A stretch of 64,000 bases of DNA from Escherichia coli (GTDB lineage Bacteria > Pseudomonadota > Gammaproteobacteria > Enterobacterales > Enterobacteriaceae), in assembly GCF_024502345.1 (NCBI RefSeq), contig NZ_JALDNN010000001.1. One strand, written 5' to 3'. Position 1 is the stretch's first letter. Each line of letters opens with the position of its first letter. This document shows, one piece after another, positions 44,553 through 52,748 of this stretch. Under the pieces are notes generated by a model. That model saw nothing but the letters and a program-made list of their open reading frames with translations. It had not been told where the DNA came from and searched no databases. Position numbers and translations under genes: made by a program.

Positions 44553-45293
44553 ATGCTGCAAAATATTCGAATTGTGCTGGTGGAGACGTCACACACCGGC
44601 AATATGGGTTCTGTTGCCCGTGCCATGAAAACAATGGGATTAACCAATCTGTGGCTGGTTAATCCACTGGTGAAACCCGACTCCCAGGCGATTGCCCTGG
44701 CGGCGGGGGCCAGCGATGTGATTGGTAATGCTCACATCGTCGATACGCTCGACGAAGCGTTAGCCGGTTGTAGCCTGGTGGTGGGCACCAGCGCACGCTC
44801 CCGCACGCTGCCGTGGCCGATGCTCGACCCGCGCGAATGCGGTCTGAAAAGCGTCGCTGAAGCGGCAAATACCCCGGTGGCGCTGGTGTTTGGTCGCGAA
44901 CGTGTCGGCCTGACCAATGAAGAGTTGCAGAAGTGTCATTATCATGTCGCGATTGCCGCTAACCCTGAATACAGCTCGCTGAACCTGGCGATGGCGGTTC
45001 AGGTTATTGCCTATGAAGTGCGTATGGCCTGGCTGGCAACTCAGGAAAATGGCGAGCAGGTCGAGCATGAAGAGACGCCGTATCCGCTGGTCGATGATCT
45101 GGAGCGTTTTTATGGTCATCTGGAACAAACGCTGTTGGCAACCGGTTTTATCCGTGAAAACCATCCGGGGCAGGTGATGAATAAATTGCGCCGTCTGTTT
45201 ACCCGTGCGCGCCCGGAAAGCCAGGAATTGAATATCCTGCGCGGGATTCTGGCTTCTATAGAGCAGCAGAATAAAGGTAATAAGGCCGAATAA
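44553..45293 (+). CDS. trmJ: tRNA (cytidine/uridine-2'-O)-methyltransferase TrmJ
   Basis: 246 aa SpoU-class methyltransferase. Confidence 0.92.
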
Positions 45294-45300
45294 CAGTGGT

Positions 45301-45383
45301 TGCCTGATGCGACGCGTAACGCGTCTTATCAGGCCTACAGTGCACAGAGTCCCAGGGCGGATATGGCGTTCACGCCGCATCCG
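45301..45383. repeat. REP elements downstream of trmJ
   Basis: tgcctgatgcgacgcgtaacgcgtcttatcaggcctac and ggcggatatggcgttcacgccgcatccg palindromic units. Confidence 0.6.
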
Positions 45384-45449
45384 ACAACAGGTACAAACAC
45401 CACGATAAAAAAATGGCACTGAAGGTTAAATACCCGACTAAATCAGTCA

Positions 45450-45520
45450 AGTAAATAGTTGACCAATTTACTCGGGAATGTCAGACTTGACCCTGCTATG
45501 CAATACCCCCACTTTTACAA
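45450..45520 (+). promoter_or_regulatory. iscR promoter region with candidate IscR operators
   Basis: aaatagttgaccaatttactcgggaatgtcagacttgaccctgc contains two TTGACC -35-like hexamers and the sequence remembered for IscR type-1 sites; exact boundaries not verified. Confidence 0.45.
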
Positions 45521-45562
45521 TAAAAAACCCCGGGCAGGGGCGAGTTTGAGGTGAAGTAAGAC

Positions 45563-46051
45563 ATGAGACTGACATCTAAAGGGCGCTATGCCGTGACCGC
45601 AATGCTTGACGTTGCGCTCAACTCTGAAGCGGGCCCGGTACCGTTGGCTGATATTTCCGAACGTCAGGGAATTTCCCTTTCTTATCTGGAACAACTGTTT
45701 TCCCGTCTGCGTAAAAATGGTCTGGTTTCCAGCGTACGTGGACCAGGCGGTGGTTATCTGTTAGGCAAAGATGCCAGCAGCATCGCCGTTGGCGAAGTGA
45801 TTAGCGCCGTTGACGAATCTGTAGATGCCACCCGTTGTCAGGGTAAAGGCGGCTGCCAGGGCGGCGATAAATGCCTGACCCACGCGCTGTGGCGTGATTT
45901 GAGCGACCGTCTCACCGGTTTTCTCAACAACATTACTTTAGGCGAACTGGTTAATAACCAGGAAGTGCTGGATGTGTCTGGTCGTCAGCATACTCACGAC
46001 GCGCCACGCACCCGCATACAAGACGCGATCGACGTTAAGTTACGCGCTTAA
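45563..46051 (+). CDS. iscR: Fe-S cluster assembly transcriptional regulator IscR
   Basis: 162 aa Rrf2-family, [19 protein letters not shown]. Confidence 0.96.
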
Positions 46052-46291
46052 TTTAACCGTCCTGTTTCGTGTTGCATCTGCGTTGACTGCACATACTCAC
46101 TCCGGTCACTTACTTATGTAAGCTCCCGGAGATTCGTAAGTTTGTCAACTTGCTGAAACCCGAAACAGTTAGGTTAAAGATAACAAGATATTAGAATCAG
46201 GCCGGGGCGTATCGCGCTCCGTAAACACGGTCGTACATCCAGCCGGTAGCCTGGTTCCTTGCATTGAGTGATGTACGGAGTTTATAGAGCA

Positions 46292-47506
46292 ATGAAATTA
46301 CCGATTTATCTCGACTACTCCGCAACCACGCCGGTGGACCCGCGTGTTGCCGAGAAAATGATGCAGTTTATGACGATGGACGGAACCTTTGGTAACCCGG
46401 CCTCCCGTTCTCACCGTTTCGGCTGGCAGGCTGAAGAAGCGGTAGATATCGCCCGTAATCAGATTGCCGATCTGGTCGGCGCTGATCCGCGTGAAATCGT
46501 CTTTACCTCTGGTGCAACCGAATCTGACAACCTGGCGATCAAAGGTGCAGCCAACTTTTATCAGAAAAAAGGCAAGCACATCATCACCAGCAAAACCGAA
46601 CACAAAGCGGTACTGGATACCTGCCGTCAGCTGGAGCGCGAAGGTTTCGAAGTCACCTACCTGGCACCGCAGCGTAACGGTATTATCGACCTGAAAGAAC
46701 TCGAAGCGGCGATGCGTGATGACACCATCCTCGTTTCTATCATGCACGTGAATAACGAAATCGGCGTGGTGCAGGATATCGCGGCTATCGGCGAAATGTG
46801 CCGTGCTCGTGGCATTATCTATCACGTTGATGCAACCCAGAGCGTGGGCAAACTGCCTATCGATCTGAGCCAGTTGAAAGTTGACCTGATGTCTTTCTCC
46901 GGTCACAAAATCTATGGCCCGAAAGGTATTGGTGCGCTGTATGTGCGTCGTAAACCGCGCGTACGCATCGAAGCGCAAATGCACGGCGGCGGTCACGAAC
47001 GCGGTATGCGTTCCGGCACTCTGCCTGTTCACCAGATCGTCGGAATGGGCGAAGCCTATCGCATCGCAAAAGAAGAGATGGCGACCGAGATGGAGCGTCT
47101 GCGCGGACTGCGTAACCGTCTGTGGAACGGCATCAAAGATATCGAAGAAGTTTACCTGAACGGTGACCTGGAACACGGTGCGCCGAACATTCTCAACGTC
47201 AGCTTCAACTACGTTGAAGGTGAGTCGCTGATTATGGCGCTGAAAGACCTCGCGGTTTCTTCCGGTTCCGCCTGTACGTCAGCAAGCCTCGAACCGTCCT
47301 ACGTGCTGCGCGCGCTGGGGCTGAACGACGAGCTGGCACATAGCTCTATCCGTTTCTCTTTAGGTCGTTTTACTACTGAAGAAGAGATCGACTACACCAT
47401 CGAGTTAGTTCGTAAATCCATCGGTCGTCTGCGTGACCTTTCTCCGCTGTGGGAAATGTACAAGCAGGGCGTGGATCTGAACAGCATCGAATGGGCTCAT
47501 CATTAA
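46292..47506 (+). CDS. iscS: Cysteine desulfurase IscS
   Basis: Start set at ATG 46292 ([14 protein letters not shown], 404 aa); PLP Lys motif [12 protein letters not shown]; active-site loop SSGSACTS. Confidence 0.96.
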
Positions 47507-51086: not shown

Positions 51087-51287
51087 ATGGGACTTAAGTG
51101 GACCGATAGCCGCGAAATTGGCGAAGCACTGTACGATGCGTATCCCGATCTTGATCCGAAAACGGTTCGATTCACCGATATGCATCAGTGGATTTGCGAT
51201 CTGGAAGATTTCGACGACGACCCGCAGGCATCCAACGAGAAAATCCTCGAAGCGATTTTGTTAGTCTGGCTGGACGAGGCCGAATAA
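51087..51287 (+). CDS. iscX: Fe-S assembly protein IscX
   Basis: 66 aa acidic protein [17 protein letters not shown]. Confidence 0.9.
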
Positions 51288-51464
51288 TTTCCGCGTCATG
51301 CTTCACGCCGCAGGTGCGTTGGCTGCGCTCGTTCACCCCAGTCACATAGTTATCTATGCTCCTGGGGCTTCACTCACTTGCCGCCTTCCTGCAACGCGAA
51401 TCATTTAGCGGAAAAATCCTGGGGCTGCCAACTGGCGGCCCTTTTACAAAGAAGGATAACTAAA

Positions 51465-52748
51465 ATGACAGAAGCGATGAAGATTACCCTTTCTACCCAA
51501 CCTGCCGACGCGCGCTGGGGAGAAAAAGCAACTTACAGCATTAATAATGACGGCATTACCCTGCATTTGAACGGGGCAGACGATCTAGGGCTGATCCAGC
51601 GTGCGGCGCGCAAGATTGACGGTCTGGGCATCAAGCATGTTCAGTTAAGCGGTGAAGGCTGGGATGCGGATCGCTGCTGGGCATTCTGGCAAGGTTACAA
51701 AGCCCCGAAAGGCACGCGTAAAGTGGAGTGGCCGGATCTGGACGATGCCCAGCGCCAGGAACTGGATAACCGCCTGATGATCATCGACTGGGTGCGTGAC
51801 ACCATCAACGCACCGGCAGAAGAATTGGGACCATCGCAACTGGCACAGCGTGCTGTTGATCTGATCAGCAACGTCGCGGGCGATCGTGTGACTTATCGGA
51901 TCACCAAAGGCGAAGATCTGCGTGAGCAAGGTTATATGGGGCTGCACACCGTCGGACGCGGTTCAGAACGTTCTCCGGTATTGCTGGCGCTGGATTACAA
52001 CCCAACTGGCGATAAAGAAGCGCCAGTGTACGCGTGCCTGGTAGGTAAAGGTATCACTTTTGACTCCGGCGGCTACAGCATCAAACAGACTGCGTTTATG
52101 GACTCGATGAAGTCGGACATGGGCGGCGCGGCAACGGTTACCGGGGCGCTGGCATTTGCCATTACGCGCGGACTGAACAAGCGCGTGAAGCTGTTCCTCT
52201 GCTGTGCGGATAACCTGATTAGCGGCAATGCGTTCAAGCTGGGCGATATCATCACCTATCGCAACGGTAAAAAAGTTGAAGTGATGAACACTGATGCCGA
52301 AGGGCGTCTGGTGCTTGCCGATGGTCTGATTGATGCCAGTGCGCAGAAACCGGAAATGATCATTGATGCGGCGACCCTCACCGGGGCGGCGAAAACTGCG
52401 CTGGGTAATGATTATCACGCGCTGTTCAGTTTTGACGATGCGCTTGCCGGTCGTTTGCTGGCGAGTGCCTCACAAGAGAACGAACCATTCTGGCGTCTGC
52501 CGCTGGCGGAATTCCACCGCAGCCAGCTGCCGTCTAACTTTGCCGAACTGAACAATACCGGAAGCGCGGCGTATCCGGCAGGCGCGAGCACGGCGGCGGG
52601 CTTCCTGTCGCACTTTGTTGAGAACTATCAGCAAGGCTGGCTGCATATCGACTGCTCGGCGACTTACCGTAAAGCGCCGGTTGAACAGTGGTCTGCGGGC
52701 GCTACGGGACTTGGTGTGCGCACGATAGCTAATCTGTTAACGGCGTAA
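51465..52748 (+). CDS. pepB: Peptidase B (M17 aminopeptidase)
   Basis: Start set at ATG 51465 ([10 protein letters not shown], 427 aa); M17 signature NTDAEGRL. Confidence 0.9.

Follow-up and report, generated by a model that had tools for sequence, protein, structure and literature searches.

An ERIC element between iscR and the iscRS stability element of Escherichia coli

The iscR-iscS spacer and its stability element

The spacer between iscR and iscS is 111 nt long in O157:H7 and most other Escherichia coli, and in the 64,000-nt stretch of E. coli DNA analysed here (the window) it is 240 nt, which raises the question of what the additional DNA is and whether it belongs to the structure on which RyhB-dependent decay of the isc message relies. 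In the window iscR (45563..46051, plus strand) encodes 162 aa and ends in a TAA stop codon at 46049-46051, as given by the ORF list and by the iscR annotation in a 100% identical E. coli record; iscS, the cysteine desulfurase gene (46292..47506, plus strand), is placed by the ORF list and by annotation in matching E. coli records. Measured from the iscR TAA to the iscS ATG at 46292, the spacer spans 46052-46291, which confirms the extent given by an earlier reading of the letters made without database searches (the sequence-only reading). That reading had also suggested, correctly, a shorter spacer in K-12: it is 111 nt in the K-12-like allele L001, and likewise in L003, L004, L005 and L007. 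Alignment with these alleles, proposed there as the way to find any inserted segment, located 129 nt of added DNA, so that the spacer is not identical to that of the reference strains. The added DNA is placed at 46052-46180, straight after the iscR stop codon, because a complete RF01517 element starts at 46181.

The IscR encoded in the window carries isoleucine at codon 152 (ATA, 46016-46018, variant position 46017), in the C-terminal tail, where K-12-type strains have threonine (ACA). The Ile152 protein (WP_001241356.1; the Thr152 version is WP_001241357.1) occurs in the window and in strain S1, and is absent from the ERIC-bearing strains O139:H1 and O158:H23. Upstream, between trmJ, which ends at 45293, and the iscR promoter region, REP-type palindromes at 45300-45400 gave three matches to the Rfam family naRNA4 (RF02564) that fall below threshold, at about 32 bits where the gathering score is 59.5.

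The 3' 110 nt of the spacer (46181..46290, plus strand) are a full-length, high-scoring member of RF01517, the iscRS or 'iscR stability element', which is said to go back to Desnoyers et al. in 2009, and include a RyhB-complementary Shine-Dalgarno (SD) and start-codon region; cmscan scored the match at 118.3 bits (E 1.5e-31, gathering score 40) over model positions 1-110 of 110. From 46201 to 46291 the sequence is 100% identical to that of the empty allele L003, and the iscRS module, with the RyhB target, the SD and the iscS start codon, is by its sequence intact and essentially unchanged beside the inserted block. Unlike the usual iscRS element, it is separated from the iscR stop codon by an ERIC copy, described below, and it has four allele-specific substitutions within its first 12 nt that weaken the outermost Rfam helix, where they are marked as non-canonical. 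The suggestion that the spacer holds the structure behind RyhB-dependent differential stability stood as far as RF01517 goes (118 bits, 46181-46290), but the first of the two hairpins described in the sequence-only reading is not part of that element. In the known mechanism RyhB pairs at iscS, the iscSUA part of the message is degraded, and strong intergenic structure lets the iscR part accumulate (PMC12533949).

Duplex scans placed a RyhB-complementary region over the iscS SD and start codon (46264..46294, plus strand), where a search for such complementarity had been proposed. The best duplexes of 25-nt windows with RyhB nt 31-62 have targets starting at 46260-46261 (-19.1 kcal/mol) and lie over the SD, while GAGCAATG at 46287-46294, over the start codon, is an exact complement of a RyhB 8-mer. 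The predicted region is the same in the empty alleles, and the RyhB sequence was confirmed in one ERIC-bearing strain (RF00057, 83 bits). Pairing of RyhB to ERIC itself was considered and rejected: the unrestricted duplexes were long and meaningless, and the restricted scan put the best sites only at the SD and start codon.

A second inverted repeat, of 9 nt, had been described just upstream of the SD. A repeat does exist there, found by repeat search as the perfect 8-bp inverted repeat CGTACATC / GATGTACG at 46232-46239 / 46270-46277 (plus strand); the ninth base pair did not stand, 'ccgtacatc' being a misreading of 'tcgtacatc'. The 3' arm (46270-46277) adjoins the SD GGAG at 46277-46280, and the two arms are not mutually paired in the Rfam consensus structure. 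Taken alone the repeat is only marginally unusual, since 274 of 5000 mononucleotide shuffles of the 111-nt element also contain an 8-mer inverted repeat, and it is not special to the window because it belongs to the conserved iscRS element and reads the same in insert-free strains. As RNA, the two arms could form an 8-bp duplex, CGUACAUC/GAUGUACG (-9.6 kcal/mol), joining the loop of a conserved iscRS hairpin to the segment just 5' of the SD; both arms are invariant in all loci and genera compared, and the 3' arm overlaps the best RyhB-complementary stretch. This complementarity could represent a pseudoknot, or an alternative fold that competes with binding of RyhB or the ribosome. The first iscRS hairpin (46203-46222) is hypervariable among E. 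coli strains (including L001, L005, L013 and L014), with pairing always kept; its alleles GGGGCGTATCGCGCTCC (window and O157), GGAGTGCTAAATACTCC (K-12), GGAGTGTTTAACACTCC and GGAGTGTTTAGCGCTCC are shuffled relative to the presence of ERIC.

The inserted ERIC copy and its distribution

Enterobacterial repetitive intergenic consensus (ERIC) elements are also known as IRU or RU-1 (Sharples & Lloyd 1990, Hulton et al. 1991, Wilson & Sharp 2006). The block at 46052..46178 (plus strand) is identified as a 127-bp copy of this miniature inverted-repeat element by consensus alignment, primer cores and dispersed paralogues. The E. coli 127-nt ERIC/RU-1 consensus, taken from Table 1a of Delihas 2007 (PMC2759123), aligned with it without gaps at 90/123 positions locally and at 92/127 over the full length (about 73% and 72%), consensus positions 1-127 having been placed on 46052-46178 by extending the 123-position local alignment to both ends. 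The first base of the copy, 46052, is the base right after the iscR stop codon, and the copy reads in the direction of the isc operon, which is the orientation of the consensus in that table.

The ends of the copy form a perfect 7-bp inverted repeat, TTTAACC/GGTTAAA, inside 25-nt arms that are 80% complementary: the left terminal arm (46052..46076, plus strand), with TTTAACC outermost, was found by repeat search and in the minimum free energy structure, and the right arm (46154..46178, plus strand) by repeat search. Members of the ERIC family are 127 bp long, with a 7-bp terminal inverted repeat and a long stem-loop (PMC2229807; PMC2267715). Between the arms lies the central palindrome CTCCGG-TCA-CTTAC-TTAT-GTAAG-CTC-CCGGAG (46100..46131, plus strand), seen both by repeat search and in primer matches. 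The standard ERIC-PCR primers ERIC1R and ERIC2, which appear side by side in 233 papers, match this core with 2 mismatches in 20 each, at 46096-46115 (minus strand) and 46116-46135 (plus strand), against a chance expectation of 0.00-0.01. The first hairpin of the sequence-only reading is present exactly as described in sequence and position, and since the added block is identified as ERIC, this hairpin is the ERIC central palindrome.

The block behaves as a dispersed repeat, with blastn matches of 60-80% identity at a median of 7 sites per E. coli genome and at no more than 12. The iscR-site copy thus resembles the ERIC family in its length of 127 bp, its gapless identity of about 73%, its primer-targeted central palindrome, terminal inverted repeats and long stem-loop, and in being an intergenic element within an operon with several diverged copies per genome. 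It differs from a typical ERIC in its distance from the consensus (72% identity, against 83% for the copy between iscX and pepB), in termini that read TT...AA rather than TA...TA, and in being present in only 9% of E. coli, with its closest relative a same-site copy in another genus. REP/BIME elements and the Correia elements of Neisseria are likewise small operon repeats whose hairpins can alter segmental mRNA stability, but their sequences are unrelated to ERIC; REPs are 35-40 bp long, and Correia elements are RNase III substrates that can contain promoters. Since it sits in the intergenic DNA between two co-oriented genes of iscRSUA, the ERIC copy would, from its position, be co-transcribed with them. 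The sole ORF running into it, 45972-46121 (49 aa), shares part of its length with iscR in a different frame.

A second ERIC in the window, at 51288-51414 between iscX and pepB, starts right after the iscX stop codon (51285-51287), so that, the two being placed alike, both ERICs of the window adjoin stop codons in one orientation. It matches the E. coli consensus at 105/127 by position and at 98/113 (87%) locally, and is also present in K-12-like strains (239/240 identical over 51241-51480). The Rfam family V_AS5 (RF02818), a Vibrio antisense RNA, gave sub-threshold end-to-end matches to the iscR-site ERIC (20.7 bits) and the canonical iscX-site ERIC (47 bits, at 51289-51413); V_AS5 and CssrA (RF02798), a Shigella sRNA, both match the two copies below threshold, at 46007-46178 and 51236-51413 on the minus strand. 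These 'sRNA' families appear to have been built on ERIC-containing sequence.

The distribution of the iscR-site copy was assessed by megablast of 45900-46450 against 5426 complete E. coli genomes. The locus was matched in 5424 of the 5426; the whole query was covered in 490, and in the remainder the match came in two pieces missing 129 nt. ERIC is carried by 489/5426 genomes (9%) and is absent from 4935/5424. Nearly all carriers (485/489) are at least 99% identical over 186 nt, and they include O26, O103, O111 and O139 strains and ATCC 8739. Compared with the closest empty allele, L003, the filled allele differs by the ERIC itself, four substitutions at most 14 nt from its right end, and one iscR codon. 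Among the three filled E. coli alleles that were aligned (the window, O139:H1 and O158:H23), the right-flank substitutions go with ERIC in 3/3, and the iscR codon and the hairpin-1 allele do not; at least three iscRS hairpin-1 alleles were found together with ERIC in E. coli. This pattern, in which the flank substitutions track ERIC and the hairpin-1 and iscR codon variants do not, shows that recombination has reached right up to the insert.

ERIC and the iscRS element are each well known; what appears to be new is a copy of ERIC at a notable address, between iscR and iscS. A literature search found no paper linking ERIC with iscR-iscS, the strain-specific ERIC tables of Wilson & Sharp 2006 lying outside that search. 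We favour with considerable confidence the overall explanation in which the spacer consists of two independent modules, ERIC (46052-46178, plus two junction bases) and the iscRS element (46181-46290), the former most likely a tolerated passenger that probably did not arise by fresh transposition.

Junctions and origin of the iscR-site copy

With boundaries marked by slashes, the empty junction reads TAA/TAAAAAG and the filled junction TAA/TTTAACC...GGTTAAA/GA/TAACAAG. The right junction (46179..46198, plus strand), defined from variable columns and alignments, has an extra GA followed by the start of the iscRS element with four substitutions (46184, 46189, 46190 and 46192), and the net length gap to the empty alleles is 129 rather than 127. 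All three aligned ERIC-bearing E. coli alleles have these four substitutions and no empty allele does; 46189T and 46192T are common to the E. coli filled allele and Citrobacter amalonaticus. The cluster is left unexplained by simple insertion. TA termini with a TA target-site duplication were not recognisable in the comparison of filled and empty alleles, the ends being TT (46052-46053) and AA (46177-46178); such TT...AA termini are compatible with an old, mutated ERIC copy.

A further allele was seen in strain 33E (L006 250-262), which belongs to a divergent lineage (93.7% identity). It is ERIC-less, with a 115-nt spacer that has an extra AAGA right after the stop codon, identical to the bases at 46177-46180 that separate the ERIC stem from the conserved flank where the element is present. 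The AAGA could be a deletion footprint, a pre-insertion state or a small tandem duplication, and because it complicates the junction, a TA duplication is harder to define.

Beyond E. coli, a scan of one genome per species showed an ERIC with this same placement and orientation in C. amalonaticus, Phytobacter ursingii and P. diazotrophicus. Scanned metagenomes contributed a C. amalonaticus-like contig, another enterobacterial contig (L016) and the E. coli allele itself. On L016 (Ga0308166_1000149, 2116-2243, minus strand) the ERIC follows the iscR stop codon with a 1-nt indel, and the iscRS element is diverged (GGCCGTACATCC). The E. coli iscR-site copy is 86% (85.8%) identical to that of C. amalonaticus, the figure being 72% for the E. 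coli consensus and 66% for the iscX copy, so that its nearest relative is the same-site copy of another genus, its paralogues in E. coli reaching 60-80%. Eight positions are common only to the four iscR-site copies from named species. Between E. coli and C. amalonaticus the third codon positions are 70% identical in iscR and 85% in iscS, comparable to the 85.8% of the ERIC.

On these comparisons, the E. coli iscR-site ERIC probably did not reach its place by recent transposition of another ERIC in the species. In E. coli the empty junction looks ancestral, because TAA/TAAAAAGAATTCAG matches the start of the Rfam family consensus. The filled allele may be an old one; alternatively, homologous recombination may have brought in a short patch from a relative in which ERIC had been retained, the patch being trimmed later by recombination within E. 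coli. Either origin fits, because only ERIC and about 14 nt of right flank differ from the empty alleles. We regard as quite improbable the alternative that ERIC transposed recently within E. coli to a TA site, with the same-site copies of other genera being independent insertions at a hot spot. ERICs are described as mobile with TA duplication (PMC2229807), the E. coli allele is nearly invariant, as the 485/489 carriers show, and the Phytobacter copies, at 94-97/127, are no closer to the E. coli copy than is the consensus at 92/127. Against this, a source copy is missing, the E. coli paralogues being at most 80% identical; at the same site C. amalonaticus has a copy that reaches 86%; the eight derived positions and near-identical termini are found only in iscR-site copies; and a clean TA duplication is absent, while flank substitutions are held in common with C. 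amalonaticus.

Folding and possible effect on the isc operon

For the 131-nt stretch around the first hairpin the folding energy is -45.8 kcal/mol, where shuffles average -25.6 (z -5.65) and none of 200 does as well, which bears out the description of the spacer as structured. The ERIC RNA is predicted to fold on itself as an imperfect stem-loop of about 125 nt. Across six same-site copies, 91% of the cells in a 44-pair stem are standard pairs, and 10 of the 44 pairs have changed on both sides, a number reached by 0/500 shuffles, slid controls giving 0-2. Because the compensatory changes exceed both shuffles and slid controls, the stem has evidently been maintained. The antisense strand was as stable as the sense strand or more so in 6/6 copies, so the covariation is not proof of selection on the isc-sense RNA; G-U pairs and strand asymmetry, considered as a sign of a selected sense RNA, were likewise uninformative, the antisense being no less stable.

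The neighbouring element is predicted to be untouched. The iscRS dot-bracket structure is identical with and without ERIC, the outcome of the folding check that the sequence-only reading had proposed, and the mean unpaired probability of the RyhB/SD segment is 0.41 in the filled allele, 0.39 with ERIC removed and 0.37 in the natural empty allele. The idea that ERIC alters the fold of the iscRS element or the accessibility of the RyhB site was rejected on these grounds, the predicted fold and the unpaired probabilities being unchanged. A sequence scan of the spacer found neither a sigma-70-like promoter nor an intrinsic-terminator-like site.

On balance we favour, with fair rather than strong confidence, the reading that ERIC is a tolerated, self-contained passenger hairpin beside which RyhB and IscR control stays in working order; it is suggested by the self-contained fold and by the 91% of E. 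coli genomes that do without ERIC. ERIC would be transcribed with iscRSUA and fold alone beside the unchanged iscRS module, the RyhB target, SD and iscS start would keep their usual fold next to the ERIC hairpin, and at most ERIC would change the degradation of the 3' end of the iscR message. The small effect so predicted rests on thermodynamic prediction together with population frequency. As a counterpoint to the passenger reading, retention at the same site in several genera, with compensatory changes, points to a hairpin that has not been decaying freely and may be selected.

ERICs next to stop codons in Yersinia, said to have been described by De Gregorio et al. in 2005 as 'B-oriented', offer a precedent for an effect. 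According to reports on Yersinia enterocolitica, stop-adjacent ERICs lower the level of upstream transcripts, terminating ribosomes holding the hairpin open and so exposing an RNase E site, and orientation is crucial (PMC2229807, PMC10969869, PMC3184786). The iscR-site copy is like these in adjoining the upstream stop codon, in lying within a polycistronic unit and in its predicted RNA hairpin, and unlike them in its E. coli host and in having a second, independent stability element downstream, which is missing in the Yersinia cases. By analogy, ribosomes ending at the iscR stop codon would keep the arms unpaired, leaving an RNase E site accessible within the AU-rich right arm or flank, which predicts lower iscR mRNA relative to iscSUA in ERIC-bearing strains. 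We consider this possible but rather unlikely. The ERIC starts on the base after the iscR stop codon, with its left arm adjoining that codon, the iscX-site copy (51288-51414) likewise follows a stop codon in the same orientation, and the stem has been kept across genera with compensatory changes; the orientation is also the one seen in Erwinia (Delihas 2007, PMC2759123), where ERICs are joined in frame to the 3' ends of genes. On the other side, RNase E motifs are too degenerate for scoring, and 91% of E. coli genomes do without ERIC. The assignment of the 'B' orientation to the iscR-site copy is also our own and tentative; a literature search for the orientation rule yielded nothing pertinent.

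A related proposal, to which we give a similarly small chance, is that selection has maintained the ERIC next to the iscR stop codon as a module that retunes iscR:iscSUA output in lineages of the O26/O103/O111 STEC type. It draws on ERIC having been kept there, with compensatory changes in the stem, by Escherichia, Citrobacter, Phytobacter and a further enterobacterium, and such a module would act through ribosome-dependent RNase E access or through 3'-end protection.

Protection by itself seems distinctly doubtful. The ERIC hairpin would then be an extra barrier to 3' exonucleases, guarding the iscR fragment after RyhB-triggered cleavage of iscSUA and leading to more apo-IscR under iron starvation. 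There is a stable stem-loop directly 3' of iscR, and REP-type hairpins are classic intercistronic stabilisers; the known accumulation of iscR depends on strong intergenic structure (PMC12533949). However, the native iscRS structure is already sufficient in K-12, and because it lies 3' of ERIC, an ERIC barrier would matter only with cleavage between the two modules.

Highly improbable is a new iscSUA promoter supplied by ERIC that would escape IscR autorepression: ERIC does contain the -35-like hexamers TTGACT (46083-46088) and TTGTCA (46142-46147), but neither has an acceptable -10 hexamer 16-18 nt away, and a scan of both strands of 45400-46400 returned no site, with 1.1 expected in shuffles. 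That both hairpins belong to one native RyhB-decay structure, the length gap being lineage variation of that structure, may be practically discounted and is refuted by alignment with the empty alleles, for although the spacer contains both hairpins, the second of them within RF01517, the first belongs to a 129-nt block that 91% of E. coli genomes lack, that shares homology with a family of dispersed repeats and that lies outside an Rfam model matching end to end without it.

The iscRSUA operon is the classic example of how an sRNA induces differential decay within a polycistronic mRNA, and the mechanistic work on it is, as far as is known, confined to K-12, which is ERIC-less. About one in eleven complete E. 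coli genomes, including those of major non-O157 STEC serogroups and of ATCC 8739, a common laboratory strain, has a further 127-nt hairpin separating iscR from the protective structure. The insertion calls for caution in ERIC-PCR typing and in length-based comparison of the iscR-iscS spacer. If it has no effect, the locus is another example of operon spacers tolerating insertion of a miniature inverted-repeat element. If the hairpin does alter the stability of the iscR message, the ERIC-bearing lineages would differ from others in the tuning of Fe-S cluster homeostasis and of IscR-regulated traits, and if ERIC is a maintained module, it would constitute a natural on/off allele of a model differential-decay operon. 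Because they differ little otherwise, the natural ERIC-bearing and ERIC-less alleles offer a clean test, in E. coli, of the ribosome-unmasking model from Yersinia.
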